A DNA stretch of 64,000 nt, taken from Thermoplasmata archaeon (lineage in GTDB: Archaea > Thermoplasmatota > Thermoplasmata > Lutacidiplasmatales > SKW197). Positions 3,001 to 63,274 of this stretch are shown one piece after another. Every line of letters begins with the position of its first letter. Position 1 is the first letter of the stretch. The translations under genes and the position numbers were made by a program. The DNA is taken from the NCBI GenBank assembly GCA_049970095.1, contig JBMFNP010000001.1:18912-82911 (forward strand), given 5' to 3'. Under the pieces are notes generated by a model. The model made no database searches and was not told the DNA's origin. It saw only the letters and a program-made list of their open reading frames with translations.

Positions 3001-4376
3001 TTAGGCTGCGAAAGGGCATGCAGCACACTCTCCAGTTCTTTCTTTTTAAGGTGATGGTAGGCATATGCCCTCTTCAGAATTTTCAGGGCTTCCTTTATCT
3101 TCCAGGTTCTGTGAATTCCCATTCCAATTAACACCTGTGCAAGCACATCTAAAGAGTTCACTGGAATTTCTACATGGTCCAGTTCTCTCCTTTCAATCTT
3201 TTCAATTATTGTGAAACATTCTAGAAAATCCAGGAGGTCTGTGGAAATAAAATAACCCATAGATATGCCGCCCAGTGTGTGTCCTGCCCTTCCAAATCTT
3301 TGGATTGCCTTGGAAATTGATTTTGGAGAAGAGATTTGTATTATACAGTCAACGCTGCCGATGTCAATTCCAAGTTCAAGTGAAGTAGAAGTCACTACAG
3401 CCCTCAATTCTCCTTTCTTTAAACTATCTTCCGTTTCCAGGCGTCTTTTTCTGCTCAAACTTCCATGGTGTGCATCAATGGCAGTTATGCCAAGCCCCCT
3501 CAGAACTTGCACAAGTTCTTCTGTGTGTTTCCTTGTGTTTGTGAAAATCATTACTGTGCGATGACGGTTGATAATCTCAGCACAGATTTTTGCGATCAGA
3601 AGATTTGCTTCTGCCCTTGGTTTGTTTTCTATGCCTGGCTGGTAGATTATCTGGATTTCATACTCTCTGCTGGTGTCTAAATTGAGAATTTCTACTCGTC
3701 TGGGTTTTCGGGCTGAAAAGCCTCCAAGATATTTTGCAATTTCTTCAATAGGGGACTGGGTGGCTGAGAGACCGATACGCACAAAACCTGGGGAGAGCTC
3801 CTCCAGGATTTCCAGTTCTGCAGAAAGCAAGGTTCCTCTTTTGCTGGCACAGAGTTCATGGATTTCATCAAGAATTACATATTCCACCTTATTTAGGTGT
3901 TCCTGGAATCTCCTTGAGTTTAACAGAATTGTGAAGGATTCTGGGGTGGTGATCAGAATGTGTGGTGCATTTTTTAGCATCTTGATTTTTTCTTTTTGAG
4001 GTGTGTCTCCAGTGCGCACTGAAACTCTTATGTTTCCCTCTAGCCCCATCTCTTCAAGGGGTAAAATAAGGTTTTTCCTTATGTCATTAGCCACTGCTTT
4101 GAGCGGAGAAATGTAGATGCAGTATACTCTATTTTCAAGTTTTCCCTTTTCATTGAGCGCTGCAAGATTGCTTAAAATTCCGAGGAATGCACTAAGTGTC
4201 TTGCCAGAACCCGTGGGGGCGCACACCAGCACATTTTTTCTATTCAGGATTCGCGGAATTGCCTGAATTTGTGGTTCGGAGAGTTTTCCATACTTTGATT
4301 TGAACCAGTTTCCAACATGGGGATGCAGCATTTGAATTATTATTTCCGATTGTTGTTCCACCACCACTGTGCCCAT
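1..4376 (-). CDS. lhr: Lhr-like large ATP-dependent (DEAD/DEAH-box) helicase, C-terminal end outside window (partial)
   Basis: I translated the minus strand in the frame whose codon first positions are 4376, 4373 and so on. It gives MGTVVVEQQSEIIIQMLHPHVGNWFKSKYGKLSEPQIQAIPRILNRKNVLVCAPTGSGKTLSAFLGILSNLAALNEKGK (Walker A/motif I). Further down it gives ...GELRAVVTSTSLELGIDIGSVDCIIQISSPKSISKAIQRFG (helicase C-terminal motifs). The frame stays open to position 1 with an Lhr-type C-terminal extension. It is not in the supplied ORF track, presumably because no stop codon lies inside the window. Confidence 0.85.
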   Translation of the reverse strand, partial: MGTVVVEQQSEIIIQMLHPHVGNWFKSKYGKLSEPQIQAIPRILNRKNVLVCAPTGSGKTLSAFLGILSNLAALNEKGKLENRVYCIYISPLKAVANDIRKNLILPLEEMGLEGNIRVSVRTGDTPQKEKIKMLKNAPHILITTPESFTILLNSRRFQEHLNKVEYVILDEIHELCASKRGTLLSAELEILEELSPGFVRIGLSATQSPIEEIAKYLGGFSARKPRRVEILNLDTSREYEIQIIYQPGIENKPRAEANLLIAKICAEIINRHRTVMIFTNTRKHTEELVQVLRGLGITAIDAHHGSLSRKRRLETEDSLKKGELRAVVTSTSLELGIDIGSVDCIIQISSPKSISKAIQRFGRAGHTLGGISMGYFISTDLLDFLECFTIIEKIERRELDHVEIPVNSLDVLAQVLIGMGIHRTWKIKEALKILKRAYAYHHLKKKELESVLHALSQPKTGRVDYHAKLEEFTTRRSAATYFYENVGTIPQEQNYQVFDEYGEHLGTLSEKFAEFLKPGDSFILGARVYDFVRRSSSKIFVKESTQKHATVPSWVGEINARTPELSRAIGETLEMLSQMDEPNLKKYLSRRCANEESVMYILTMIKKQKELGMPGNKKILVEWVEEEGRIASVVLSIAGRKVNEAVARYIASKLNLPCEMIVEDNGFAILTEDRIFLEALPNAEVFTTSMEKLIRNSDIFLTRFKQSAIRSFLILRNLRGKRASSFRISRQMESLLEKIHQKHPIYIEAMRESLYETLDLPNAVNFLERIKKRELQVYYGNGNNLSPFSLTLLNSVAKDSGFWIEKLRRIRKESEVKRYLLNEEILKFGFGSKEDALEFMQKYHVFHYPDENLEALVKEGKIHKGDVAGRKVYLYPDASSILEELKKGLKSKLLREICKYILTMPATAEEVATMLGVGHRDVEKTFQELLEDGNIVPVIVNGNEKFLSAPFLEFVLAKTSEYISRAEMDSRISAAVFGVKNIDECFQNFLGIRDPYVLFVRGLEKNWHPDDVLYGKYIGGRSVFVHVSDIPLLQSIYSLPLTENEKKVWKMLARPMSFSELKKYAGISSLRETLDKLEIGVLLKKKDGDPVIYEALPLYPRISEAEEICIERIVKGFGAVSVDFLSRYLNLPFEKVDAIVNNLVTKHKIKRAKILGTERTVFFSDEKLNGKMPESILLSAHDPYLEHRWAEIAGMLSEAYNLVYVSKSALAAFVNCEVRDDFLQVHSIWLKEENYIHLPEIWNWLIKYAKYRDVSIVHLNKIGGKWATEFTTYFKQGFFKSGSAIIHSELPYIEKVFPFDEIFARVLVLQGIPKLSNDALTVIEKYFGVMNEEELLLRAMRFAHPEELKNIYYAYGLSGGGYFTEQQISILKAIKSYGFAEGIAEEMKEILSNLDKPKTADELYSSVSISHRRFRAVLGTMLKTNIVYEAGGGILKITPEHGFSRTEATEFFIKKLLE

Positions 4377-9063: not shown

Positions 9064-9708
9064 ATGTGGTTCATCAATATCCGCAGAGAACTCCAGAAAC
9101 AAATAGAAAATCTAAATCACCTGGATCCGGAGGTGCGGAGCAGTGCAGCAGATGCCATTGGTAAGATTGCGAGAAACGGACGGGCACAGGCAGTGGTGGA
9201 TGCTGGTGCAATCCCTGTACTGATCCGTGTGCTCAAGGACCCAGATGAAGATGTGCGAGAGCTGGCAGCAAGCGCCCTTGCAGAGATTGCAGATAGCGGA
9301 CATGCCAAGGCGGTGATAGATGCTGGGGCAGTTCCTGAGCTTATCCATCATGCTCTCTCGGATGGCTGTGAATTCATGGGGGAGTGGGCAAGATTCCTTC
9401 TTAATTTGATTGCGGAAAGTGGTCAAAAGCAGGCAGTGATAGATGCTAGGGTGCTCCCTGAAGTTATCCGTGCACTCTCAAATAGCGATAAGTATGTTCG
9501 GGAGTTGGCAATATATGCACTTGGTATGATAGCAGAAAGCGGATATACAGACGAAATAATCTGTAGTGGCGCACTGGAAAAACTGAAAGCGCTGGTGAAT
9601 GATAGCACGAAAGTGAGGGTTTATGATGAAGTGAGGAAAGAGTGGGTGAAAACCACCCTGGGTGCAGTTGCCAGCGACACATTGAAAAAAATAGAGAGGG
9701 CACATTAA
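9064..9708 (+). CDS. HEAT/armadillo-like repeat protein (PBS-lyase HEAT-like repeats)
   Basis: Internal ~38-aa repeats: AVVDAGAIPVLIRVLKDPDEDVRELAASALAEIADSG / AVIDAGAVPELIHHALSDG… / AVIDARVLPEVIRALSNSDKYVRELAIYALGMIAESG. Confidence 0.7.
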   Translation: MWFINIRRELQKQIENLNHLDPEVRSSAADAIGKIARNGRAQAVVDAGAIPVLIRVLKDPDEDVRELAASALAEIADSGHAKAVIDAGAVPELIHHALSDGCEFMGEWARFLLNLIAESGQKQAVIDARVLPEVIRALSNSDKYVRELAIYALGMIAESGYTDEIICSGALEKLKALVNDSTKVRVYDEVRKEWVKTTLGAVASDTLKKIERAH

Positions 9709-12044: not shown

Positions 12045-13952
12045 ATGGGTCTTGTCAGATTTGGGCCTCTTGTGCTTCGCTGGTGTTTGAACTGCAACAT
12101 ACCAGTAGTGGAACAGAGGGAGTGTGGAATCTGTAAATCGCAGACAGTTGAAGTTCAGGTAACCCCACCAGGGGATGTGAAAATTGCATTTAACAAGGAA
12201 CTTCGGCTTTTCAGAAAAATTCTTGATAAACAGTTTGGCAAGGGATGCGGAACAGCCCTTTTTCCAAGAAATAAACTGGTTGTCCTGAACCCTGTGCCCA
12301 GCATTGACAAGATGTATGAAGTTGTGATGGATGGGCAGGTGGTGGCATCTGTGAGGTATGATATAAAAAAAGGCTGGCAGACACTTCTGAGGATGGAAGG
12401 TGTTTTCAGAATTGAAAAAAATATCTCAAGGCAGTTTGTAGTAGCGGATGACGGTGCCATTGAACCCATCCTGAACGGAAGCAATCTGATGGCTGTCGGG
12501 GTGCTGGAAACATCAAATGATATTGCGGAAGGGGATGAGGTAATAGTTCTTGACAAAATGAAAAAGCCATTTGCAGTGGGTACTGCCAAGATGGATGCAC
12601 AAGAAATGAAATCTGCAATAAATGCGGGGGAAAAAAAAGGAGTGGCTGTGAAAGTGAGATGGAGAGAGGCATGGAGAAAAGCCAGAATCTTACAGGACAG
12701 AATTATAAGCTGGAAGCAGGTTGCAGAGGGGAGCAAAACTGCACTCCAGAACAAGGAACGGATGGCTTTGAATTTCATCCAGAATGTGGCAAAAAAATAC
12801 AACAAAGAAATCGCAGTTTCCTTTAGCGGAGGAAAAGATAGCTTGGTTACGCTTCTTCTCGTGCTGAAAGCAGGTTTTAAGCCCAGAATTTTATTTGTGG
12901 ACACGGGATTGGAACTTCCAGAAACCTTAGAATATGTGAAAAAAATTGCGGAAAAACTTGGAGTTGAAATAATAACAGAAAGTGCAGGAAACGCTTTCTG
13001 GGAAAACCTTGAGATGTTTGGTCCTCCTGGCAGGGACTTTAGATGGTGCTGCAAACTCTGCAAATTAGGTCCCACAACACGGCTAATCAGCAAAAATTTT
13101 CCAGATGGGGCTGTAGTATTTATCGGACAGAGGGTTTACGAGTCAGAACAGCGGGCACAGAAAGGCAACATATGGGAGAATCCTTGGGTCCCTGGACAGA
13201 TTGGTGCCTCCCCTGTGCAGTACTGGAATGCGCTTCACATCTGGCTCTACATTATGAAAGAAGGAATGGATGTGAATCCCTGGTATGCTGAAGGGATGGA
13301 AAGAATTGGGTGTTTTCTCTGCCCTGCATCCAGCATTGGGGACTTCATTATCATAGGCAAGAAATATGAAGGTTTAAAAAAATGGGAAAAGTACTTGAAG
13401 GAATATGCAGAAAAAAATGGTTTTGGAGAAGAATTCTTAAAGTATGCTCTCTGGAGATGGCGAAGGTTGCCCAGGGGAATAAAAGAATACATTGGAGAAT
13501 TTGAATTTGAAAGAAATGGAGCAGATGTGAAACTCAACCTTGCTGATGGTTATTCTCCATGCACCGGTGGTTATTCAATAGAAGGGGTTTACAATAGAAA
13601 ACTGGATATTGAAAGGATAGGAAACCTGCTGAATATCCTTGGAGCCTCAAAAATTGACAGAGAAAACAACCTTTGTGAGATAGAAGGCATCCAAATTTTT
13701 GCAGACGGTGCAGTAGTGGTGAAGGGAAATGATGAACAGGAGCTAAGAGCCAAGCTTACAAACATGCATTCCGTGGTAATGAAGGCACTTTTTTGCGTAA
13801 AATGTGGCATCTGTACAGGGAGATGTGCCCAGAAAGCAATCACACTTAAGGAAAAAGGCATCCACATAAATCCAGAACTCTGCATTCATTGTGGTAACTG
13901 TATCCAGCCATGTCCCGCACTGGTTTACAGGATGGATGCAGAAATCTGGTGA
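12045..13952 (+). CDS. PAPS-reductase-family PP-loop ATPase with N-terminal Zn-ribbon + PUA-like domain and C-terminal 2x[4Fe-4S] ferredoxin domain (paralogue 1)
   Basis: N-terminal Zn ribbon (WCLNCNIPVV…CGICKS). PP-loop AVSFSGGKDS. APS/PAPS-reductase-type cluster ligands RWCCKLCK…GCFLCP. C-terminal CVKCGICTGRCA…CIHCGNCIQPCP ferredoxin motifs. Confidence 0.8.
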   Translation: MGLVRFGPLVLRWCLNCNIPVVEQRECGICKSQTVEVQVTPPGDVKIAFNKELRLFRKILDKQFGKGCGTALFPRNKLVVLNPVPSIDKMYEVVMDGQVVASVRYDIKKGWQTLLRMEGVFRIEKNISRQFVVADDGAIEPILNGSNLMAVGVLETSNDIAEGDEVIVLDKMKKPFAVGTAKMDAQEMKSAINAGEKKGVAVKVRWREAWRKARILQDRIISWKQVAEGSKTALQNKERMALNFIQNVAKKYNKEIAVSFSGGKDSLVTLLLVLKAGFKPRILFVDTGLELPETLEYVKKIAEKLGVEIITESAGNAFWENLEMFGPPGRDFRWCCKLCKLGPTTRLISKNFPDGAVVFIGQRVYESEQRAQKGNIWENPWVPGQIGASPVQYWNALHIWLYIMKEGMDVNPWYAEGMERIGCFLCPASSIGDFIIIGKKYEGLKKWEKYLKEYAEKNGFGEEFLKYALWRWRRLPRGIKEYIGEFEFERNGADVKLNLADGYSPCTGGYSIEGVYNRKLDIERIGNLLNILGASKIDRENNLCEIEGIQIFADGAVVVKGNDEQELRAKLTNMHSVVMKALFCVKCGICTGRCAQKAITLKEKGIHINPELCIHCGNCIQPCPALVYRMDAEIW

Positions 13953-14484: not shown

Positions 14485-15366
14485 ATGAAGATAGGAATCC
14501 TTACATACGATGATGAGTGGGCTGAGGAACTCATACACAATCTGAGTGTGCTTTTACCAGATGTGAAGACTGAAATCATTGGAATTTCAAATATGAATTT
14601 GGATGCTTGCATGGAATACAGGATAATTCTAGACAGACAATCATATCTTGACCCTTATCTGAGATGTGCAATGAAGCATGCTGCAATTCATGGAACATAT
14701 GTGATAAATAACCCTTTTTCCTGCTCTCTGGATGATAAATTCTTTTTTTATGGAATTGCAAGGAAACTCAAATTTCAGGTTCCAAAAACCCTGATGCTCC
14801 CACCTTTTGACCCTGATTATGAATTCGGACATGTGATTCCGCAACTCTCATGGGAATGGGTGGAGAAGGAAATAAGATTTCCAGCTGTGCTTAAGCCTGT
14901 GAACGGGTATGCATGGAGAAATGTGTATTTTGTGAACAATATAGAGGAACTCAAAGAAATTTATAAACAGACGGGAAGCGAAACCATGCTTCTCCAGGAA
15001 AAGGTGAATTATGAGGAGTATGTGCGTGCGTTCGTAGTTGGAAAAAAGGCAGTACTTCCTGTAAAATATTTGCCATCTGAACGAAAGTATTTTTCCATGG
15101 AAAATTTTCTATGCGAAAAGATGAAGGAAAAAATCAGAAAAATCTGTGTGAAGTTAAATACAATCCTTGACTATGACATAAACACCGTGGAAATTGGAAT
15201 TGAATCAGGTATTCCTTACCTCATTGACTTCTCAAACTATGTGCCAGAAATAAAGAGATACAATCTCCCTATTGAGTGCTACCACTGGGTTGTGGATAGA
15301 ATTACTGAATTGATTGTGAATTATGCCAGAAATCCGAAAAGGAACAGGAATATGTTTCCAATCTAA
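14485..15366 (+). CDS. ATP-grasp fold protein (RimK/glutathione-synthetase-like ligase)
   Basis: 293 aa in the ATP-grasp size range. It lies 3 nt downstream of pdaD, probably in the same operon. Confidence 0.55.
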   Translation: MKIGILTYDDEWAEELIHNLSVLLPDVKTEIIGISNMNLDACMEYRIILDRQSYLDPYLRCAMKHAAIHGTYVINNPFSCSLDDKFFFYGIARKLKFQVPKTLMLPPFDPDYEFGHVIPQLSWEWVEKEIRFPAVLKPVNGYAWRNVYFVNNIEELKEIYKQTGSETMLLQEKVNYEEYVRAFVVGKKAVLPVKYLPSERKYFSMENFLCEKMKEKIRKICVKLNTILDYDINTVEIGIESGIPYLIDFSNYVPEIKRYNLPIECYHWVVDRITELIVNYARNPKRNRNMFPI

Positions 15367-15515
15367 ATTCAGGGGATGTGGAATTACTCAAGAGTGTTCC
15401 GCACTATATATATAATTTTCTACATCGCCCTAACCAAGATGCTTCGTTCTCTACATCTCCACCAAAACCTTAATTTCTGACAAAATTTTTATCACAGAAA
15501 TGCATATCTCCCCCG

Positions 15516-34089: not shown

Positions 34090-34281
34090 TTTCCATCCTC
34101 CAATTTGGCTATGCCTGATTTTTTCAGTTTAACACCTACTCATTAATATAATTTTGCCTTCACCGGGTTTCATTGAGTGTTTCTCAAAACTGCCCTCTCA
34201 CCCAGGTACCATCTTTTTCTGCCGTCTTAGAAGTTTGAGGTCGTGGAAAAATCTATATCTCTTTGTAAACTTCGCCATTCA

Positions 34282-36135
34282 ATGCAAAAATCACATGAGC
34301 GCCGCACACAAATCTTCTGGTGCAGCAGGTGCAATGTTCCCATTCTCAGCGAAAAGTGTGGAATTTGTGGCAGCAATGGAAACAAGATTATGCTCCACCA
34401 TGGGAGAGAAATCAGGCCCGGGTTTGAGTACACGCTGAATAAAATCAACCAGATACTTGAAAAAAAGTATGGAGTGAAGGAGGCTTTGAATGGAAAACTT
34501 GTGCTTCTTCACAAAGTAGCAGGTATTGATAGGACAGAAGAAATAATTGTTGATGGAAAGATTTTTGGTACATTTTCCTACATACCTGAAGAGAGGGAAT
34601 TTCAGATTTTTCTGAGAAGTTACGGCGCTGCCTATCTGCGGGGGAAGGGAGCACATAAAAATATAGTAACTGTAAATGAGAAAGCACTGGAGAGACATCT
34701 GAAAAACACATGGATTTTTGCAGAGGAACTACTGGATATTGCAGAGATTTCTCCACATCAGGACATTATTCTCTCCATAGGTAAATACACAGGTGTAGGA
34801 ATCCCTAAATTCCATAGTAGGGAAAAAATTCCAAAAAAGTGCATAAAGGTAAGGGATATTGGGGTCTGTGAATTCCAGGAGAACAACCCTGATTTTCACA
34901 CGATAGTAAAGGCAAATGCAGATTATATTGATATTCTTGAAAAAACAGCAATATCGGAAATAAAAAGGACGCTGATGCAACATAAAAATATGAAAATTGC
35001 TGTATCTTTCAGCGGAGGTAAAGATAGTGCAGTAGCATTTCATCTTCTCAGCAAAGTGACAAGCCAGTTTGATGTTATTTTCGTGGACACAGGTCTTGAA
35101 TTTCCTGAGACGGTAGAATATGTGAAAAAAATGGCTAAGGGAAAGCCTCTCTTCATTCTGAAACCCGAACACTCATTCTGGGATCTTGTGGATTCCATGG
35201 GACCACCAGCAAAGGATTACAGATGGTGCTGCAAGGTATGCAAGTTAGCACCAGTTGCCAGCCATGTAGGTAAATATGGAGAAATTCTAACTGTTGAGGG
35301 TAGAAGAAGGGCTGAGTCCTTTGCAAGAGAGAAAATAAATTTGATTGAAAAAAATCCGTTTGTGCCAGGGCAAATACTCGTGAACCCCATAAGAAACTGG
35401 TGTGCATTTGAGATCTGGCTATACATTCTAAAAGAACATATTCCAGTGAATCCGCTTTACTTCCATGATTTTGAAAGAATTGGGTGCTATCTCTGCCCCT
35501 CTGCACATGCCTGTGAATTTGATGAGGTTGCCTCTCTCCATCCAGAAATGTATGAGCGCTGGCAGAATTATCTAAAATTTTGGGCTGAAAAAAATGGAAT
35601 GGACGAAGATTACTGGAGAAAAGGTTTATGGCGATGGAAAACTCCACCGAGGAAAATCAGGAGAGAGAAAAGCTGGGAGGAGAAAAGAAATATTCACATC
35701 AAGGAAAGCATCACATGCAATGGAGAATATTTGATTGATGGGAACTTCAATACTGGGTTGAGCCAGATAGAAATCGGAAATGCACTGGGAATCCTGGGAG
35801 AAATGAGATATCTTGAGAGCACTGGCACAATTATGATAAAGCTCAGAAAATCTAGAATTCTATTTTTTGCAAACTCTGATTTCTCTGTAGTCTCAACTAA
35901 CCGTGAGGAGGGAAGAAAACTTCTTGTAAAGATTATCCAGCAATTGCTGAGGGGGATGTTCTGCACATCCTGCATGATCTGCAAAAGGGCATGCCCAGTA
36001 GGGTGCATAGATATAAGGGATGGAAAACCAGAGTACAACCTTCAGAAATGCAAAAAATGTGGGCATTGTATTGAGGCGTGTGTTGTGGCGAGATACTGGG
36101 ACAAGCGGATTGCACTTGTTTTTTCCCACACATAA
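34282..36135 (+). CDS. PAPS-reductase-family PP-loop ATPase with N-terminal Zn-ribbon + PUA-like domain and C-terminal ferredoxin domain (paralogue 2)
   Basis: WCSRCNVPILSEKCGICGS Zn ribbon, AVSFSGGKDS PP-loop, RWCCKVCK…GCYLCP, and C-terminal CTSCMICKRACP…CKKCGHCIEAC. About 50% identical to 12045..13952 in the catalytic core. Start chosen at the Met aligned with paralogue 1 (track ORF begins at 34243). Confidence 0.8.
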   Translation: MQKSHERRTQIFWCSRCNVPILSEKCGICGSNGNKIMLHHGREIRPGFEYTLNKINQILEKKYGVKEALNGKLVLLHKVAGIDRTEEIIVDGKIFGTFSYIPEEREFQIFLRSYGAAYLRGKGAHKNIVTVNEKALERHLKNTWIFAEELLDIAEISPHQDIILSIGKYTGVGIPKFHSREKIPKKCIKVRDIGVCEFQENNPDFHTIVKANADYIDILEKTAISEIKRTLMQHKNMKIAVSFSGGKDSAVAFHLLSKVTSQFDVIFVDTGLEFPETVEYVKKMAKGKPLFILKPEHSFWDLVDSMGPPAKDYRWCCKVCKLAPVASHVGKYGEILTVEGRRRAESFAREKINLIEKNPFVPGQILVNPIRNWCAFEIWLYILKEHIPVNPLYFHDFERIGCYLCPSAHACEFDEVASLHPEMYERWQNYLKFWAEKNGMDEDYWRKGLWRWKTPPRKIRREKSWEEKRNIHIKESITCNGEYLIDGNFNTGLSQIEIGNALGILGEMRYLESTGTIMIKLRKSRILFFANSDFSVVSTNREEGRKLLVKIIQQLLRGMFCTSCMICKRACPVGCIDIRDGKPEYNLQKCKKCGHCIEACVVARYWDKRIALVFSHT

Positions 36136-39431: not shown

Positions 39432-40490
39432 ATGGTGGATATTGATGATGTAGCAGAGATGAGGCGGATTGATAAAAGCGGATTGCTTACCCTCACAGAG
39501 CATTTCCCAGAACAGTTGGAAGAGGCGGGAAATATTGCAAGGAAGGCGCTCCAGGATTTCAATTTTAGGCCAAAAAATATTGTAATCTGCGGAATGGGGG
39601 GTTCAGCAATAGGGGGGGATATTGTAGCCACATGGGCTCTTGATAAGGCAGAGATTCCGATTTTTGTGGTGAGGGATTACTTTATTCCAGCATTCTCAGA
39701 TGAACACACCCTCGTCATTGCTGCCAGTTATTCTGGGAATACGGAAGAGACGATTTCAGCGTTCAATGATGCGCTGGCGAAGAGAGCAAAAATCGTAAGT
39801 ATTTCCTCTGGTGGAATTCTGGAAAAAATCTCAGTTGCCAATGGGGTGCCTCACATAAAAATTCCATCTGGAATGCCTCCAAGGGGTGCAACTGCATACA
39901 TGCTTGTTCCACAACTCCTTGTTCTGGGTGCGGTGGCTAATCTGGATGTTGAAAGAGAACTTGAGGAAAGTATAGATGTGTGCAGAAGAGAGAGAGAAAA
40001 TTTGAAGGCAGACACACCATTAGAGATAAATCTGTCAAAGAGGATTGCAAAGAAACTCATTGGATCAATTCCTAACATATTTGGAATGGGAATATCTGCG
40101 CCCATCGCAAAGAGATGGAGGACACAATTAAATGAGAACTCAAAGATAATTGCAAGGGAAGATGTGTTCCCGGAGATGAATCACAATGACACTGTTGGAT
40201 GGAGTGGTGACCCGAAACCAGAGAGATTCACAGCAGTGCTACTCCGCCATAAACAGGAATTTGAGCGAAATAGGATGCGCATTGAACTCACAAAGAATCT
40301 TGTGTTGAACAGGGCAAAAGAAATTATTGAGGTATGGGGGGAAGGGGAGACAGACCTCTCAAAGATGCTCTCGCTTATGTATGTAGGTGACTTTGTAAGC
40401 ATATATATCGCGATGCTGAGAGATATTGACCCAACTCCTGTTCCTGTAATAGAAAACCTCAAAAAACTTTTGGCAGAAAAAAAGGAGTGA
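39432..40490 (+). CDS. bifunctional phosphoglucose/phosphomannose isomerase (archaeal SIS-domain PGI/PMI)
   Basis: 352 aa. CGMGGSAIGGDIV SIS motif and the characteristic size of archaeal bifunctional PGI/PMI. Confidence 0.8.
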   Translation: MVDIDDVAEMRRIDKSGLLTLTEHFPEQLEEAGNIARKALQDFNFRPKNIVICGMGGSAIGGDIVATWALDKAEIPIFVVRDYFIPAFSDEHTLVIAASYSGNTEETISAFNDALAKRAKIVSISSGGILEKISVANGVPHIKIPSGMPPRGATAYMLVPQLLVLGAVANLDVERELEESIDVCRRERENLKADTPLEINLSKRIAKKLIGSIPNIFGMGISAPIAKRWRTQLNENSKIIAREDVFPEMNHNDTVGWSGDPKPERFTAVLLRHKQEFERNRMRIELTKNLVLNRAKEIIEVWGEGETDLSKMLSLMYVGDFVSIYIAMLRDIDPTPVPVIENLKKLLAEKKE

Positions 40491-40548
40491 ACCCCCTGCT
40501 GCAATTACAGAAATAAGAGGTGCAGGTTGTAAGGTGGAAGAAGTGAGT

Positions 40549-40678
40549 GGGAAACCCTAACTTTGGTTTCTAATAATCTCAGCCAGGAAACCGAGAGCCT
40601 GCCAGATAGTAATGGTAAGACCTAAGTCCAAAATTTTGAATTTTCAAACAAAACTTATGTTTCTCGGTGCTGGCAAGG
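40549..40678 (+). repeat. copy A of a ~135-bp element, inverted relative to copy B at 62974..63111; contains palindrome TTTGAATTTTCAAA (40635..40648)
   Basis: gggaaaccctaactttggtt…tctaataatctcagccaggaaaccgagagcctgccagatagtaatggtaagacctaagtccaaaattttgaattttcaaacaaaactt… is nearly identical to the reverse complement of 62974..63111. Differences are one 12-nt indel plus about 3 substitutions. Confidence 0.85.
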
Positions 40679-40949
40679 GGGTTTCTGGGAATTGCCAGGC
40701 ATATGACAGCGTGGGTGGGAACTACTGGTATTACGGTACAGGTACAGCAAAGGAAGGAAACTACTGGAGCAACTGGGATGGGAGTGGGTGGGGCACATCA
40801 AGTGCATATCCAATAGATGGGGTGCAGGTGCAAGCGATTACTATCCGCTATCAGATCCAGTAGTAAGCGAATTTTCTGGGATAACCGCAATTGCATTTTG
40901 CATTGGAATCCTAATGATTGCGATGGCACGAAAACGGAAAAAGAGGTAA
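40657..40949 (+). pseudogene. 3' remnant of a NosD-like right-handed beta-helix surface-protein gene with archaeosortase-type (PEF/PGF-like) C-terminal anchor; disrupted by a -1 frameshift near 40833 and lacking its 5' part
   Basis: Frame 1 reads …GNYWYYGTGTAKEGNYWSNWDGSGWGTSSAYPIDGVQVQ, the NosD-family C-terminal NYWS-NYDG-DGIGD-PY-I signature. The -1 frame continues SDYYPLSDPVVSEFSGITAIAFCIGILMIAMARKRKKR* (D-YPL motif, TM helix, Arg/Lys tail). The called ORF 40612..40863 starts inside repeat A. Confidence 0.55.
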
Positions 40950-41077: not shown

Positions 41078-42259
41078 ATGCGAAAAGATAGATTGGTGCT
41101 CGGGCTCTCAATGAATATTATCCTGCTTGGAATTGTGAGTTTTCTCACTGACATGAGTACTGAGATGATTGTGCCCCTACTTCCATTTTTTCTGGTAGGG
41201 CTTGGGGCAACATACTGGTTAATTGGAGTGATCGAGGGTGTGGCAGAGAGCATTAGCAGTTTTCTTAAACTTGCGTTTGGAATTTACTCGGATAAGCTCA
41301 GAAAAAAGAAGGCATTTGTTATTTCTGGCTATTCAATAAGCAATCTTGTAAAACCCCTTCTTGCCCTTGCAACCTCACCCATGCATGTGCTTGCCATCAA
41401 GGTGACTGACCGTATAGGAAAAGGAATAAGAACAACACCTAGAGATGCCCTCATTGCAGATGCATCCAAGGCGCAAGATAGAGGAAAGGCGTTTGGGCTG
41501 CACAGGGCACTTGATACCAGCGGTGCAGTAGTGGGTCCACTCATCGCCCTGATTGTGCTTATTGCCTTCGGGTGTGCTGGTACTCTCAATAACATAGGTA
41601 TCTACCGTGTGATTTTTGCGATTTCCGCAATACCAGGCATTGCTGCAATCCTTGTGCTTTCTTTTGTGAAAGAAAGTAAAAAAATTACAAGAAAAAAATA
41701 CACTCTCTCGCTCTCAAAGTTTCCGAAAAATTTCAGAATTTTTGTGGTTGGCGTGGGAATATTCTCACTTGGAAATTTTAGCATTGCATTTTTCCTTCTG
41801 CGCTCGGAGCAAATACTCTCCATCGGGATCTGTGGAGATGTGGCACTCTATGTATTTATGAACCTCACATATGCCCTTTTATCCTTTCCATTTGGATTGG
41901 TTGCTGACAGAATTGGAAGAAAAAATATTCTGCTATCTGGCTTCATGATATTTTCTATAGTGATGCTTCTGTTTGCATTTGCAAATTCTCTGGCTGTTAT
42001 CATTCTCGGTTTTCTGCTCTTTGGAGTTTTCATGGCAATGACAGATGGAGTGATAAGGGCAATGGGTTCCGTGATGGTCCCACAGGATGTGTGTGGCTCT
42101 GCGCTTGGCATCATTAACCTCATTACAAGTATCACCATCTTCCCTGCGAATTTCATTGCAGGCATTCTCTGGGATGCGTTCGGCTCATGCTTTGCGTTCC
42201 TGCTTAGTGCTTCTCTTGGAATTATTGCCTCGCTCCTTATCGGGCTTTTTGTGCGGTGA
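41078..42259 (+). CDS. MFS transporter
   Basis: 393 aa, 12 predicted TM helices, MFS loop motif (…ATSPMHVLAIKVTDRIGKGIRTTPRDALIAD…). Confidence 0.8.
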   Translation: MRKDRLVLGLSMNIILLGIVSFLTDMSTEMIVPLLPFFLVGLGATYWLIGVIEGVAESISSFLKLAFGIYSDKLRKKKAFVISGYSISNLVKPLLALATSPMHVLAIKVTDRIGKGIRTTPRDALIADASKAQDRGKAFGLHRALDTSGAVVGPLIALIVLIAFGCAGTLNNIGIYRVIFAISAIPGIAAILVLSFVKESKKITRKKYTLSLSKFPKNFRIFVVGVGIFSLGNFSIAFFLLRSEQILSIGICGDVALYVFMNLTYALLSFPFGLVADRIGRKNILLSGFMIFSIVMLLFAFANSLAVIILGFLLFGVFMAMTDGVIRAMGSVMVPQDVCGSALGIINLITSITIFPANFIAGILWDAFGSCFAFLLSASLGIIASLLIGLFVR

Positions 42260-49125: not shown

Positions 49126-49644
49126 TTGAACAGAAAGAAGAGGGGACAGAGTTCACTTTTTGACATGGTTTTTTTCATTCCACTCTTAATTCTTGCGGGC
49201 TTAATACTCAATTTTTCCACAGTTAAAATTTATGACAACACCGTAAAAGACGACGAAAAAATCGTTGTGGTGTCCGAAACCCTGGAGAACATTCTCAGGG
49301 TAACAATAGACAAAGCCACATACACTGCGAGCAGTGCAACCATTCTTCTTGAGGACCAGAGTGTTCTGGAACTGATTTTTGAGGATTTGTATTTGAGAGA
49401 TAAAGGTGTGGCGGATGTGAACAATATTAAGCAGGGCATTGAGGCGAAAATAAATGCCGCAATAAGAGGTGTGGTATCTCCGGAATACCACTATAATCTT
49501 TCTGCCACTTACAAAAATGTAAATATCTGGATGTCAGATTATGGTCCCAGTCCACAGATCAAATACACCTCAACGGAATATTTCAAGATGCCATATGAAC
49601 CCACAAATGTGGTGAAGGTAACCCTTGCAATTTGGCTCCGTTAA
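49126..49644 (+). CDS. pilin-like / class-III-signal-peptide protein 2 of operon (TTG start)
   Basis: N-terminus MNRKKRG|QSSLFDMVFFIPLLILAGLILNF fits the archaeal prepilin-peptidase substrate pattern (K/R-G, then a small residue, then a hydrophobic stretch). Confidence 0.55.
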   Translation: MNRKKRGQSSLFDMVFFIPLLILAGLILNFSTVKIYDNTVKDDEKIVVVSETLENILRVTIDKATYTASSATILLEDQSVLELIFEDLYLRDKGVADVNNIKQGIEAKINAAIRGVVSPEYHYNLSATYKNVNIWMSDYGPSPQIKYTSTEYFKMPYEPTNVVKVTLAIWLR

Positions 49645-49652
49645 GGAGGTGA
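49645..49652 (+). promoter_or_regulatory. Shine-Dalgarno GGAGGTGA 5 nt upstream of ATG 49658
   Basis: ttaaggaggtgagaaaaATGaataaagg. Confidence 0.65.
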
Positions 49653-49657
49653 GAAAA

Positions 49658-52600
49658 ATGAATAAAGGAAAATTGAGAAAAATAAGAATGAATGAGAGGG
49701 GCAGAGTTCCATTTGCTCTGGTTGCACTCGTAATCCTCTCGCTTGCAACAGTAAGCACATTGTATATCGCAGAAATTGATAAGGAACGCTCAGAAAAGGT
49801 AATAGAACACTATCAGGCAGATACGAATAATATTGCGAGGGCATGTGGTGAGGAACTGGAAACAGTGGCATACTATATTCTGATGCAAGTGATTGCAGAT
49901 ATGAATAATCAGCACAATCCACCACTTGACCAGATAAACAAAAGGTTACAGGATAATTTCGCTGCGTATGTGAACACATATTATAAGCCGAAGCGGATGG
50001 ATACATACTGGATAACTGTGAAAGAACACCATGTGTATTTTATCATGGATATTTTCAATGTGAATGATTCTATAGATATCTCAAACCAGAGCAAGCCCGA
50101 GTTTTTGCTGTTTGCATCACCCAGCACAAATGAAATAGACATGACAACAAACACAATGTTAAGCCAGACAAAGAAGGTTGCATATCCGAGGGTAGCGGGA
50201 AATGTAACACTGGAATTAAAAGATGTGCGTGCAAATTACATAGTGACCAAAACAATGGAGTTTGACAAGAATCTGTATTCTGCATTGCCGATGATGCGCA
50301 GTGCCTATGACTTTCTCTCAAGAACCTCTTTTGGTGATTTTGGGGAGTTAGGAAGATTGACAAAATTCATACTTACAACGATTGCCCAGTATAGAGTACT
50401 GCTTGGTTATGCTGGTGGCGGCTATGGCATCTACACCTATCCAAAGGAACAGATACTCACGCAGGATGATGTAAAAATTGCAGTGAATGTGGCAATGCTT
50501 CTGCTCTCTGCAAGATATTTTAGAGATTATGATAAAGATGCTGCTACCCAGCTCGGTGTAAACGCATTGTTTGAGAACTGGGTGAAAAATGGAACGGTGG
50601 ATGCTGCGGACATCTGGGCGTTGTATAAGAATATCATGGACACAAAAATAGACACAGGCAAGATTTTAGCCCAGAGCATCTATTCCTTTGCAGATAGATT
50701 TGCGTATGAACTCCTGACAATATTCTGGGATCCGGACACAGATTATTTTGCAGACCCAATCTTGAAGGAGCCATTCAGGGACTGGAATGAGGCAAAGGGT
50801 AAGGGAGAGACATGGGCAAAGGCAATGCTTAAAATCTGGCTTGGAAAATTCCGTTCATGGCTGGGAATTGCAGAAAGCATTGGGGATTACGAGAGTTCAG
50901 CATATATTAACGAAATGTCTGGTTTCTATGTGGCATACTGTCCTGTGCACGATGAGATTGTTGCAGGAACCTATACAGTGTTCCCTGGTGGTACATGGTA
51001 TGTGCATGCGTACGGAGTGCCAGACACAAGAGATCTTATTCTTGGAGAATCTGGAAATCCAAATCTTGATGCTCAACCCTATAAAGTTGAGACCTGGGAT
51101 GATTTCAGTGGCATTGGAAAGAGGTTATATAATTACTATGTGGTGAAGGAATCATTGATAAAGAAACATGCACACAGTAGCACACCCTACTATGACACGC
51201 TCTATGATATTCTTGAGGCTCTGAATAGAACCATGAAAAAACTTTCACCGAGTGTAAATGACAAACCGAACAAAGGATTTATGGATTATATGGCATACGA
51301 TATCTCAAAACGGCACAATCTTGAAGATACTGGTCTACAGGTAGATCCGAGTGATAAAACCACAATTCTTCTCAACCACTCAGACTATCTGATAAACACA
51401 GGTGCAATAAAGCAGGGAATCAATGATATGGCATCCTATGCAAGTGCGTTCAATGTGAGAGATAACTGGTGGAGATATGGCGCATACCATAGAGAGCAAA
51501 CAAATCCCAAAACTGGCTATCTATATGCAATCACGCAGGAAACTGTGGACCTCTGGTACGAAATGGTAGTAAACCTCTTCATGAGTGCAATAAAGGACTT
51601 TGACCCGTTTCCCTCAAGGGGTTTCCCGCCCTCAGTACAGCGGAGCGACTGGTATAATCCAAATGGTGCCTTTAAATTCAAAAATGACTTACTGAAAGAC
51701 GCTTTCATGCGTGTGTGCATAAAGTATGCAGATCCAAGGCGTGCGTCCTGGCATGATGAGGCATGGGATGGAACCCCACCCTGCTGTTCAATTCCAAAGA
51801 TGATTATTCTTGCAGAGGTGAATGCAGAATGGACAGATCTCAATATCTGGAACCATATAATGGCTGACATACGAGAAGCAGTTGAGGATACTGTTGGAAG
51901 AAACGGGCTCTTGATGGACATTACCAGGGATATGAAAGAAAATCTTGACGAAGTTACAGACATGCATGCCTATCAAGAAAATTATTACCGATTCATAAGG
52001 GAGTACATTGGCACCAAATTCATTGGAACTTCCGGATCAAATACCTGCCTGGTTGTAGCCCTTACGAAGCAGGGTGGCTGGGTTGAGAACATAATGCAGA
52101 CCACACTTAATCACATAAGAGACAATGCGGATTTGAGCAACATTGTATTATTTGAGCAAACAAACTATAGAATGGTATATGATTTCTGGGAGAACAATCT
52201 CACCACAGCATCCCAGAATGAAAGTATCCTCCATGAGGAATTGAGGGTGAAGCAGTATCCCACAGTGCTCTCACCCGGCTCTGGAATTAATGTCCAGATC
52301 ACCATACCTACAAAGGGAGTGCATTATGTAGATGCACAGGATGTGGAGCATAACATGGGTGATGCGCCCTTCACCACCCAGTGGGATGTAACAATAACAG
52401 GCAGTGTGCGAATTACAGTGAATGCTCTCAGATACTCACTGCTAAAAGGTCCAACGCATATCCAGACAATTTACAACAATACCGTTAAAATAGACATGAA
52501 TTTTCCAGTGGTGGTTTATTCTGGATGGAATTTAGAATCAGGATGGCGCAGATATGATATTGACTATCCAATGACACGCGGATACTTTGGAATTCCACCA

Positions 52601-53872
52601 AAAGACGACTCCTTTGACCCCTGGTTTATAAGCAAGCCCTTTGTTGAGTTGATAGAAGGAATGAAGGATGCAGCGGATTGGGTAATGGACAGAGACATGC
52701 GCATGAACCTCCTGCTGATGAATTATCTGGACAAAGGTGTGGAGCAGGAAGTGCATCTTTCAAAGATAATATCAGATGTGCTGAAGACAAACTGCATTCT
52801 ATTGCGTGATGCAGCCAAATCCAACTATCTCTCCGAGTTAAGCCAGAGATTCAATGCTGTGTTCTCTGCAGGAAGGGTGAGCACATACAACATTAAATTT
52901 TATGGATTTGATGCCACCTTCAAAAGTGGCTCAAAAGTTCTGGATTACAAGAGTAAATACTTTACCACAGAGATTGACTATGCAAATCTGAAAAACCAAC
53001 TCAAGTATGAGGCAAATGATTTTGATTTCAACGACGCAAGTGAACCACTGAGTGGAACATTCGGGAAGTTCAGTTTGACTGCACACAACACATACTTCGG
53101 AGAGACATTCACCACAAACATTGAGGAACCGAGCAGGACGCCCATAAGATGCGAATGGGCAGCAACAGTTAACGGAATATATGTGCCTTACCTGCATAAG
53201 ACCATCACTCTGAATATTGGAGCGATTTTGATGGGAAGTTCCACAATGCCTTCAAGTGTGTCCAGCGCCTTCAGCAATAACGCGGTGTATTTGAAGGCAA
53301 ATATGGAAGACCTGAGTGTATTCCTCAAATACTCACTGGGAGATGTGTATTCCCACTGTGTGAATGACCTTACAAGCAGTCAGGGCTTTGGCTTCTTCTT
53401 TGAATATACAGATGGTGGAAAAACCTACAGACAGGAATATGTGATTGCACAGTTTCCAGGTGCGAGCTGGAGCGAGGGACATATAAGAACATATCTGATA
53501 TCAGTTATTAACCACATACGCCAGATTGTATATAACATAGGAAATCCAGAAATTCCCACAGCACTTTATTCCTCCTATCCCACAGATATAGGAAATGCGA
53601 TGAAAGTGCAGAATCGCTGGAAGAATTATGATTATCTGGGAGATGCTGTAACATCCGTTACAATCAATGCTCATGCATCACTGCTTGGAAAGGTGGGTGC
53701 AGGAATAGACGCAGGTATCGTGCGAATTGAGTTTGAGGTTGTGGGCAAAGACAACTGGATTGTAGAAGGGAGAACAATGAATGGCGGCAGTTCTCCGCCG
53801 CCTCCACCACCACCTCCACCACCACCGCCACCCGGTGGAAGGCTAGATGGAATTGATGTATCTAACTGGTAG
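49658..53872 (+). CDS. giant (~1400 aa) protein with pilin-like N-terminus, large domain of unknown fold, 13-residue poly-Pro linker and the first strand of a GH25 muramidase domain; terminated by TAG inside the GH25 GIDVSxWQG motif
   Basis: SD-supported start MNKGKLRKIRMNERG|RVPFALVALVILSLATVSTLYIAEI. It ends …NGGSSPPPPPPPPPPPPPGGRLDGIDVSNW-TAG. The GH25 homology continues in the same frame immediately after the TAG. Confidence 0.8.
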   Translation: MNKGKLRKIRMNERGRVPFALVALVILSLATVSTLYIAEIDKERSEKVIEHYQADTNNIARACGEELETVAYYILMQVIADMNNQHNPPLDQINKRLQDNFAAYVNTYYKPKRMDTYWITVKEHHVYFIMDIFNVNDSIDISNQSKPEFLLFASPSTNEIDMTTNTMLSQTKKVAYPRVAGNVTLELKDVRANYIVTKTMEFDKNLYSALPMMRSAYDFLSRTSFGDFGELGRLTKFILTTIAQYRVLLGYAGGGYGIYTYPKEQILTQDDVKIAVNVAMLLLSARYFRDYDKDAATQLGVNALFENWVKNGTVDAADIWALYKNIMDTKIDTGKILAQSIYSFADRFAYELLTIFWDPDTDYFADPILKEPFRDWNEAKGKGETWAKAMLKIWLGKFRSWLGIAESIGDYESSAYINEMSGFYVAYCPVHDEIVAGTYTVFPGGTWYVHAYGVPDTRDLILGESGNPNLDAQPYKVETWDDFSGIGKRLYNYYVVKESLIKKHAHSSTPYYDTLYDILEALNRTMKKLSPSVNDKPNKGFMDYMAYDISKRHNLEDTGLQVDPSDKTTILLNHSDYLINTGAIKQGINDMASYASAFNVRDNWWRYGAYHREQTNPKTGYLYAITQETVDLWYEMVVNLFMSAIKDFDPFPSRGFPPSVQRSDWYNPNGAFKFKNDLLKDAFMRVCIKYADPRRASWHDEAWDGTPPCCSIPKMIILAEVNAEWTDLNIWNHIMADIREAVEDTVGRNGLLMDITRDMKENLDEVTDMHAYQENYYRFIREYIGTKFIGTSGSNTCLVVALTKQGGWVENIMQTTLNHIRDNADLSNIVLFEQTNYRMVYDFWENNLTTASQNESILHEELRVKQYPTVLSPGSGINVQITIPTKGVHYVDAQDVEHNMGDAPFTTQWDVTITGSVRITVNALRYSLLKGPTHIQTIYNNTVKIDMNFPVVVYSGWNLESGWRRYDIDYPMTRGYFGIPPKDDSFDPWFISKPFVELIEGMKDAADWVMDRDMRMNLLLMNYLDKGVEQEVHLSKIISDVLKTNCILLRDAAKSNYLSELSQRFNAVFSAGRVSTYNIKFYGFDATFKSGSKVLDYKSKYFTTEIDYANLKNQLKYEANDFDFNDASEPLSGTFGKFSLTAHNTYFGETFTTNIEEPSRTPIRCEWAATVNGIYVPYLHKTITLNIGAILMGSSTMPSSVSSAFSNNAVYLKANMEDLSVFLKYSLGDVYSHCVNDLTSSQGFGFFFEYTDGGKTYRQEYVIAQFPGASWSEGHIRTYLISVINHIRQIVYNIGNPEIPTALYSSYPTDIGNAMKVQNRWKNYDYLGDAVTSVTINAHASLLGKVGAGIDAGIVRIEFEVVGKDNWIVEGRTMNGGSSPPPPPPPPPPPPPGGRLDGIDVSNW

Positions 53873-53974
53873 GGCACAATCAACTGGGTTTCTGTCAGGG
53901 CTGCAGGATATTACTTTGCGTTTGCAAAAGCCACGGAAGGTGTAAGTTATGTAGACCCAACTTTCAGTACAAAT

Positions 53975-54457
53975 ATGAGAAATGCCAAGGCAGCAGGAAT
54001 TTACATAGGAGCATATCATTATGCCCACCCGGACAGGAATTCAGCAATTGCAGAAGCAGACCACTTCGTGAGTGTGATAATGCCATATATCTCTACTGGC
54101 TATATGGTACCTGCGCTTGACCTGGAGGAGGGTTATTCTATCGGGAAGCCTGCGCTTTCCCAGTGGGTAAATACTTTTATGAACAGAGTGAAGGCAAGGA
54201 CAGGAGTGACACCTGTAATTTATACAAGCGCAAATTATGCAAGGAACTATCTTGATTCCTCAGTCACTGTATGGCCACTGTGGATTGCGCACTGGACATA
54301 CAATCCTGGGAGTTCCCCAAGTACGGGTGTCTGGAGTACCTGGTATTTCTGGCAGTATAGTGATAAAGGCCATGTGCCAGGCATCTCAGGCAATGTTGAT
54401 CTGGATGTTTTTAATGGAGATCTATCTGCGCTGGAAGCGAGTTTTGTAATCCATTGA
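53975..54457 (+). CDS. GH25-family lysozyme/muramidase domain, as called from an internal Met; the homology actually starts at 53846 in frame with the upstream giant ORF across TAG 53870-53872
   Basis: GRLDGIDVSNW*GTINWVSVRAAGYYFAFAKATEGVSYVDPTFSTNMRNAKAAGIYIGAYHYAHP…ALDLEEG…WIAHW…WYFWQYSDKGHVPGISGNVDLDVFNG aligns residue-for-residue with the Streptomyces GH25 (Cellosyl) pattern GIDVSHWQGSINW…AYIKATEG…GAYHFA…LDIE…FWQYS…GDVDRNKFNG. The TAG replaces the conserved Gln. Confidence 0.8.
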   Translation: MRNAKAAGIYIGAYHYAHPDRNSAIAEADHFVSVIMPYISTGYMVPALDLEEGYSIGKPALSQWVNTFMNRVKARTGVTPVIYTSANYARNYLDSSVTVWPLWIAHWTYNPGSSPSTGVWSTWYFWQYSDKGHVPGISGNVDLDVFNGDLSALEASFVIH

Positions 54458-62937: not shown

Positions 62938-62973
62938 TGCTGCATGTAATTACACCTGAGTATTAATTTCTTT

Positions 62974-63111
62974 CTGAGAACCGAGGAACACAAGTTTTGT
63001 TTGAAAATTCAAAATTTTTGGACTTAGGTCTTACCATTACTATCTGGCAGGCTCTCGGTTTCCTGGCTGAGATTATTAGATAAATCTCATCAACCAAAGT
63101 TAAGGTTTCCC
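62974..63111 (-). repeat. copy B of the ~135-bp element (inverted relative to copy A), in divergent promoter region between STAND ATPase and DUF2156 genes; palindrome TTTGAAAATTCAAA at 63000..63013
   Basis: Its reverse complement is cacacagggaaaccttaactttggtt[gatgagatttat]ctaataatctcagccaggaaaccgagagcctgccagatagtaatggtaagacctaagtccaaaaattttgaattttcaaacaaaacttgtgttcctcggttctcag. An AAATTAATA TATA-like box lies ~30 nt before ATG 62937. Confidence 0.85.
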
Positions 63112-63274
63112 TGTGTGCCGCGCCCACTCATTTTCTAGTGATTTTCTAGTGAATTGCAATAAATTGCACAGGGGAATTGTTTTCAATAAACTTCTGACAG
63201 CGCCTTACCAAGGCATAGAACGCACAGTTGCCTGGTTAGGAAAGAATATAACGCCCTTTGTGTTTACTCATTCA

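Follow-up and report, generated by a model that had tools for sequence, protein, structure and literature searches.

A frameshifted, 5'-truncated remnant of a beta-helix surface-protein gene beside a short inverted repeat in a Thermoplasmata archaeon

Positions 40666–40949 of the Thermoplasmata DNA analyzed here (a stretch of 64,000 nucleotides, called the window throughout) encode, in two reading frames, the last ~94 residues of a multi-copy Thermoplasmata surface-protein family. We consider this feature to be a non-functional 3' fragment of one member of that large, fast-evolving paralogous family, with a probability of roughly 0.85. Compared with intact homologues, essential parts of the gene are lost and the frame is disrupted, and the feature is therefore a genuine but ordinary pseudogene fragment. 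An earlier note, made from the letters of the window alone, had proposed a frameshifted, 5'-truncated beta-helix remnant. Our analysis supports this interpretation, with corrections to the coordinates and a weaker claim for the C-terminal sorting signal.

The locus and its annotated open reading frame

The fragment lies in a 587-nt spacer that separates a PGI-like gene (39432..40490, SIS/bact-PGI_C) from an MFS transporter gene (41078..42259). The annotated 83-aa open reading frame described in the earlier note is present in this spacer (40612..40863, + strand) and is identical to the NCBI entry "hypothetical protein ACP5LE_00250" from a Thermoplasmata MAG (P0006). The features of the locus, together with the distant second copy of the adjoining repeat, are as follows.

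40544..40665, + strand: repeat A, left copy, non-coding and species-specific, found as inverted-repeat pairs I1/I2; similarity to the right copy extends to 40671
40612..40863, + strand: 83-aa ORF ACP5LE_00250, a gene-caller chimera of 18 repeat codons, 52 remnant codons and 13 out-of-frame codons
40666..40668, + strand: truncation junction, GGT, from alignment to paralogues L007, L005, L006 and L004 and to the right repeat copy
40666..40821, + strand: first frame of the remnant, GAGKGVSGNCQAYDSVGGNYWYYGTGTAKEGNYWSNWDGSGWGTSSAYPIDG, the conserved C-terminal module after the last beta-helix coil, from homologues, profile search and tblastn
40735..40746, + strand: in-frame tandem duplication GGTACA GGTACA, present in three of three assemblies
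40819..40822, + strand: G4 tract, site of a 1-nt deletion; G5 in the sister MAG and in paralogue L007
40821..40949, + strand: second frame of the remnant, GAGASDYYPLSDPVVSEFSGITAIAFCIGILMIAMARKRKKR and stop, from homologues and the tail pattern across 94 family members
62977..63130, − strand: repeat A, right copy, inverted, 22.3 kb from the left copy and upstream of an 866-aa AAA_16/TPR gene

The 83-aa ORF takes its ATG and its first 18 codons from the left copy of repeat A; its frame reads ...LMFLGAGKGVSGNCQAYDSVGGNYWYYGTGTAKEGNYWSNWDGSGWGTSSAYPIDG before passing into 13 unrelated, out-of-frame codons. The earlier note had counted 15 repeat codons; alignments of the repeat and of the paralogues give 18 and place the boundary at 40665/40666 rather than 40656/40657. 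The annotated "hypothetical protein" is thus a gene-caller artefact starting in repeat A. The practical value of this finding is mostly for annotation, and ACP5LE_00250 should carry a pseudogene-fragment flag. The second frame contains D-x-YPL (40836–40850), SEF (40866–40874), a 17-residue hydrophobic stretch (40878–40928), RKRKKR (40929–40946) and the stop codon (40947–40949). Within the first frame, the GGTACA duplication yields YYGTGTAKEG where the family equivalent is Y(D/N)NTxxEG.

The surface-protein family and its C-terminal tails

When the two frames were joined into a repaired 98-aa query, a search of a 5.8-billion-protein database returned 24 protein matches with E values from 6e-43 to 4e-4. 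All 24 read YPIDGG(A/K)(G)A(S/Y)DxYPL in a single frame, and nearly all come from Thermoplasmata MAGs or metagenomes. As judged from these alignments, the homology of the remnant is far above chance level. The earlier note had staked its reading on similarity of the two frames to beta-helix C-termini, and such similarity is clear (E down to 6e-43). A profile search with the module found 2349 cluster representatives at E ≤ 1e-3, 709 of them at E ≤ 1e-10. Among the 150 profile matches listed, the module mostly forms the extreme C-terminus of proteins of ~350–3400 aa.

Full-length members show what the fragment derives from. PF05048 (NosD) and PF13229 (Beta_helix) score above threshold in ten of ten full-length homologues tested, and the fragment matches the C-termini of proteins annotated or scanned as NosD/beta-helix (E 6e-43 to 1e-15). 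The proposed origin from the C-terminus of a NosD-type beta-helix protein is therefore borne out, the remnant being the extreme C-terminus of such proteins. The fragment itself, as separate frames or repaired, had no match at E ≤ 10 among the beta-helix models of Pfam and NCBIfam, so the HMM search that the earlier note had suggested for both frames finds its domains in the full-length homologues and not in the remnant. Since the fragment has no detectable domain while its full-length homologues do, it is a derivative of the family rather than a domain-bearing member.

The known proteins closest to this family are the NosD/beta-helix surface proteins (PF05048, PF13229 and the TIGR03804 repeat), whose domains occur in every full-length relative of the fragment; the window fragment differs in retaining no Pfam-detectable beta-helix. 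The NosD Pfam profile ends within the conserved module of the family, near GNYWSNW, and the generic motif GNYWSDY...D.YPL also occurs in PDB 2kzw_A (E 0.0065). Unlike the NosD of nitrous-oxide-reductase maturation, the full-length relatives fall below the cut-off of the true-NosD model TIGR04247 (48–190 bits against 300), and by this score the family is not true NosD. Intact members start with a signal anchor, continue with right-handed beta-helix repeats of the NosD/PF13229 type in varying number and a C-terminal module with the conserved pattern GNCQAYD...GNYWSNWDG...AYPIDGGAGASDxYPL, and end in a three-part tail made up of a (P/x)E(F/L) motif, a single membrane helix and a cluster of Arg/Lys. 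A complete 416-aa member (L025, 268..1518) has the signal anchor, beta-helix repeats, module and anchor tail, and the shortest full-length members are ~380–430 aa long.

The family is present in at least 13 and at least 11 copies in two related MAGs that are GTDB representatives. The closest paralogues share 79–81% identity with the fragment, and the proper frames of the fragment contain no internal stop. Therefore, either the truncation is recent or the fragment is not entirely neutral. Many homologues start at VNGNCQ, and we considered whether this point is a recurrent breakpoint or the start of a mobile C-terminal cassette. This was rejected because the frame at L005 continues upstream of VNGNCQ into beta-helix repeats, and the VNGNCQ starts are gene-calling artefacts. 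A module copy of 74% identity was also seen at the end of a 1.5-kb contig labelled Candidatus Micrarchaeia (L027, JBMFNT010000054.1), which is probably a mis-binned Thermoplasmata contig.

The remnant ends at its extreme C-terminus with SEF, then GITAIAFCIGILMIAMA, then RKRKKR and the stop. This is the generic exosortase/archaeosortase layout of a motif, a hydrophobic helix of ~20 residues and a basic cluster, and the same tripartite layout is seen across 94 family tails. The motif just before the helix is PE[FLYI] in 29 of the 94 and xE[FL] in 25. AlphaFold2, run on the module alignment, gave a pLDDT of 49.5 and a confident prediction for the C-terminal helix only.

Curated sorting-signal models recognize few of these tails. 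PEF-CTERM (TIGR03024, cut-off 23 bits) did not match the window tail, whose motif is SEF, and PGF-CTERM matched neither the window tail nor any of 93 family tails. The sole model match of the window tail is to VPEID-CTERM and is sub-threshold, at 17.7 bits against 33. Among the 93 family tails, two match PEF-CTERM at E ≤ 0.01 (E down to 1.7e-5), and PEFG-CTERM, Loki-CTERM and Heimdall-CTERM are each matched by three. P0080 scores 18.2 bits with PEF-CTERM, below the cut-off of 23. With 17.1 bits against 16, the tail of one relative exceeds the cut-off of the generic PEP-CTERM model. Most anchor tails of the family thus escape the curated models, and the (P/x)E(F/L) tails may represent a class of archaeosortase signal that current models miss.

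The earlier note had described D-YPL, then (P/S)EF, a transmembrane segment and an Arg/Lys tail, and had likened it to the PEF/PGF, ArtA-type signals. The layout stands; the class has no model match. With no curated PGF-CTERM or PEF-CTERM match, only a generic archaeosortase-type architecture is supported. Furthermore, PGF-CTERM pairs with archaeosortase A and PEF-CTERM with archaeosortase C (PMC5244752), so the ArtA-type label is unsupported. The window tail shares with both signals the short motif, hydrophobic helix and basic cluster at the C-terminus but carries SEF in place of PEF or PGF, and "PEF-like", which denotes a resemblance and assigns no class, is the defensible wording. No archaeosortase candidate was found within the 64-kb window. 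Only two window ORFs of 180–420 aa have at least five predicted membrane helices, namely the MFS gene and an ORF adjoining ZnuA, which by its position is probably an ABC permease. Near the family gene at L021 is a multi-pass membrane ORF whose motifs, we presume, resemble a CPBP-type protease rather than an archaeosortase. At L039, an unrelated 1089-aa secreted protein adjoining the PGI gene (139..3408) ends in ...PPVPEINALPILILLCALSLLIGSF, followed by a basic stretch that extends for ~20 residues up to the C-terminus. The arrangement of PE(F/I/L), helix and basic cluster is therefore not confined to the beta-helix family.

Truncation and frameshift

We searched the window with full-length family members using tblastn. 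Only their last ~85–95 residues matched, as the proposed 5' truncation predicts, and nothing else in the 64 kb was recovered. For example, residues 502–583 of the 594-residue open frame at L016 were aligned. The matches divide between two frames at 40821. Nothing of the gene's upstream part was found in the 64-kb window, and because the PGI-like gene ends at 40490, there is no room for it upstream. Relative to intact homologues, the start codon, signal anchor and beta-helix are missing. The earlier note had estimated that ~400 or more residues were gone; the large N-terminal loss is confirmed, and its size is at least ~250–330 aa and usually far more.

The nucleotide homology to four paralogues (L007, L005, L006 and L004) begins abruptly at ~40666 (40665–40667), at GGTGC, and the sequence to the left (40544–40665) belongs to repeat A. 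At the junction, the right repeat copy reads ...CTCGGTTCT, the left copy ...CTCGGTGCTGGC and the paralogues ...AATGGTGCGGGC. Repeat and gene overlap only in GGT (40666–40668), which is both the inner end of repeat A and the Gly codon of NNGAGKG in the paralogues. A microhomology of 3 nt points to illegitimate joining and is too short for a k-mer mis-join. The abutment on the repeat, as claimed earlier, recurs in a second assembly, made independently from a different sample: its contig ERZ3623746 NODE_7758 (3590 bp) starts at 40599 and matches the window through the junction without difference. In the sister MAG, contig 59 (JBMFLI010000059.1) has the PGI gene followed by repeat A, as in the window. 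The truncation is common to all three assemblies covering the fragment or the junction.

Sister MAG GCA_049971275.1 (JBMFLI010000011.1) is identical to the window from 40725 onward except for two differences. One is GATGGGGGT (G5) in the sister versus GATGGGGT (G4, 40819–40822) in the window, and the other is a C/T SNP at 40894 (Ala/Val). The in-frame G5 version is also found in paralogues, L007 included. Because G5 occurs in both the sister MAG and the paralogues, it is ancestral and the window carries a 1-nt deletion; and because the sister strain is still in frame, the frameshift is a later, polymorphic event. A −1 shift had been reported near 40833. The shift is real, but it lies in the G tract at 40819–40822. 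ERZ3623746 NODE_7758 has G4 with T at 40894, so that three allele combinations are seen: G4 with C in the window, G4 with T in ERZ3623746 and G5 with T in the sister. Since the same junction and the same G4 recur in ERZ3623746, neither the truncation nor the frameshift stems from faulty assembly or sequencing. Alignment of the window to the sister MAG over ~23.5 kb shows ~43 SNPs and a single indel, which is G4/G5, and of the ~419 homopolymer runs of at least four in this alignment, six are in the fragment. The position of the sole indel among so few runs is more readily explained by a genuine mutation in sequence free of constraint than by a random read error, and the G4/G5 polymorphism is consistent with relaxed constraint on the fragment.

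We infer the following course of events. An illegitimate recombination or deletion through the GGT microhomology would have fused repeat A, at its inner end, to the Gly codon of NNGAGKG, removing the promoter, the signal peptide and the whole beta-helix. Either insertion of repeat A or a deletion ending at it could have produced this truncation. The truncated state is the one shared by the three assemblies, and a later loss of one G from G5 in some strains would have left the fragment in two frames.

Repeat A, relatives and rival explanations

Repeat A is ~125–155 nt long, and the two copies seen (40544–40671, + strand, and 62977–63130, − strand) are inverted relative to each other. They are 91–93% identical, with indels of 11 nt and ~14 nt and an exact core of ~64 nt, and a 1-nt indel leaves the reading frame unconserved between them. 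Rfam gave nothing at the gathering threshold across the whole window and nothing meaningful around the locus at E ≤ 10, no tRNA was found, and the folding z-scores of repeat A are −0.6 to −1.5. With no Rfam family, no tRNA and ordinary folding energies, we rejected repeat A as an RNA gene. A 23-nt stretch of its core has no exact match in GTDB representative genomes (596 Gb) and none in JGI metagenomes, and blastn of repeat A against all loci fetched returned only same-species contigs. No target-site duplication is visible around the copies. The 22-kb segment between them carries MFS, MMPL, Peptidase_C11, GH25, ZnuA, ZPR1, CBS, DUF72 and DUF7121 genes, and no recombinase, integrase or transposase gene was found in it. 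A foreign origin of the segment was rejected on its uniform GC content and lack of mobility genes.

Both copies adjoin places where strains or assemblies differ. Other same-species assemblies break in or beside the left copy: the sister contigs leave a gap between 40629 and 40725, and L003 stops at 40513. One of these breaks coincides exactly with the end of the exact core. The inner end of the right copy is 12–18 nt from a strain-specific breakpoint (62965/62966). Here, the 866-aa AAA_16/TPR gene (60337–62965, − strand) is 99.9% identical in sister L008 (JBMFLI010000163.1), with identity spanning only from 27 nt upstream of the ATG to the stop codon and both flanks differing, a pattern resembling a precise, cassette-like exchange of the gene's surroundings between strains. 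Taken together, the truncated gene at the left copy and the strain breakpoint at the right copy indicate that repeat A marks rearrangement-prone spots. In a separate observation, the 27-nt motif GGGGATGTRGAATTACTCAAGAGTGTT lies directly after the stop of ORF 14485..15366 (15372–15398, + strand) and, in the sister, directly after the stop of the 866-aa gene (L008, 2654–2680); no further copy was found within the window.

The earlier note had also suggested looking for relatives with a full-length gene at this position. We carried out this search and found none with such a gene between PGI and MFS; in the relatives found through the PGI gene or the family module, the neighbors differ from those in the window. 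In the best relative, L039, whose PGI is 70% identical, PGI is followed by a different secreted protein and by two homologues of the 866-aa gene; in L042 a homologue of the 286-aa gene comes 3.6 kb after PGI. These arrangements hint that ~40.5–59.4 kb of the window was inserted or expanded between old neighbors. At L025, a full-length family gene lies near homologues of the 285-aa and 390-aa genes, in the opposite orientation and separated from them by two ORFs resembling hydrogenase subunits. Since there are at least 13 family copies per genome, this proximity is weak evidence.

Other copies of the family, in further Thermoplasmata MAGs and metagenome contigs, have also decayed. We found a 74-aa open frame at L032 (2249–2473), a frameshifted module at L033 (~5007–5326) and a collapsed helix with stops at L006 (~1400–2252). 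Truncated copies at L004 (2182–2514) and L029 (83–556) share upstream sequence and are probably orthologous decaying copies rather than a repeat-plus-module unit. Fragments like the one in the window are a normal by-product of turnover in this family. The window fragment resembles ordinary pseudogenes from multi-copy surface-protein turnover in its truncation at an illegitimate junction, homopolymer frameshift, strain polymorphism and sibling fragments. Its sole particular feature is the junction partner, a short repeat with an inverted second copy 22 kb away. The fragment documents rapid turnover, by truncation, homopolymer frameshifts and internal collapse, in a beta-helix family of an uncultured Thermoplasmata lineage, and it marks a strain-variable rearrangement point beside a short repeat. 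It leaves the current understanding of these systems unchanged.

Three other explanations were weighed. A contig mis-joined at repeat A or at the module shared by paralogues, combined with a homopolymer error, could conceal an intact full-length gene. This possibility needed attention because contig ends leave most homologues in related MAGs "partial", and because two other assemblies have a break within repeat A or beside it; the ~64-nt exact core in both copies also means that the orientation of the 22-kb segment could be mis-resolved. However, both the junction and G4 recur unchanged in ERZ3623746 NODE_7758, whose SNP background differs. The overlap of repeat and gene at the join amounts to just 3 nt, and the strains differ by a single indel in ~23.5 kb. 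We rejected an artefact on the strength of this independent assembly and give it hardly any credence. A small independent gene is highly improbable as well. Under this explanation, G5 strains would encode a ~112-aa tail-anchored protein from the 40612 ATG, with G4/G5 acting as a slipped-strand phase-variation switch. The earlier note had named a contiguous ORF as the sign of such a gene, and the sister MAG does carry the in-frame G5 allele. An uninterrupted sister ORF of 112 codons from the 40612 ATG to the stop can be deduced if repeat A is assumed upstream, as the sister contig starts at 40725. G4 and G5 also coexist with the 40894 C/T SNP in three combinations, and the tail would form a confidently predicted helix. 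Such a protein would nevertheless lack a signal peptide, although all intact relatives have the module outside the cell. Repeat sequence makes up its first 18 codons, and the other repeat copy does not keep that frame; the homology also begins mid-domain, exactly at the join to unrelated sequence. Similar fragments in other genomes decay differently, and a tract of four to five G is short for phase variation.

It is very unlikely that the fragment is a silent 3' cassette serving as a recombination donor for surface-protein variation, or the scar of a 22-kb invertible or mobile segment bounded by repeat A. In favor of this reading, the family has many copies that are conserved at the ends and variable in the middle, and the inner ends of both repeat copies adjoin rearrangement junctions, with sister identity on the right side starting only at 62965. 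A few kb at most separate PGI from downstream homologues of the 866-aa and 286-aa genes in relatives, suggesting that 40.5–59.4 kb was inserted or expanded. Against this, the segment is without a recombinase, integrase or transposase, its GC content is uniform with no visible target-site duplication, and the repeat core is absent from the 596 Gb of genomes and the JGI metagenomes searched. A frameshifted donor of 94 codons, ~20% diverged from the paralogues, would also make a poor cassette. A further proposal makes the inverted copies the termini of a 22-kb segment, inverting or moving through recombination at their inner ends, and takes the truncated gene and the right junction as its scars; we consider it very unlikely. 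If true, the segment would be a previously undescribed recombination element in Thermoplasmata. A non-functional fragment from ordinary family turnover remains our preferred reading.

A few further features of the window were recorded. Direct repeats D2/D4 (12889–13068 and 35075–35248) are 73–79% identical, lie 22.2 kb apart and fall inside paralogous ORFs of ~630 aa (12045..13952 and 34243..36135). Because the sister MAG annotation identifies ORF 34243..36135 as a PAPS_reduct gene, these ORFs are ordinary paralogues. At 9165–9469, inside ORF 9064..9708, three tandem units of ~120 nt (71–73% identical) look like protein-level repeats, which we take to be HEAT/ARM-like, rather than a DNA element. 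Lastly, an in-frame TAG at 53870–53872 (within 49625..54457, + strand) interrupts a GH25 muramidase domain (GIDVSNW*GTINW...) where the GIDVSxxQG motif leads one to expect Gln. The frame downstream matches PF01183 over positions 8–180 of 180. The TAG separates the C-terminal lysozyme domain from the rest, a 1415-aa surface protein, and the length of the sister gene (1407 aa) implies the same stop.
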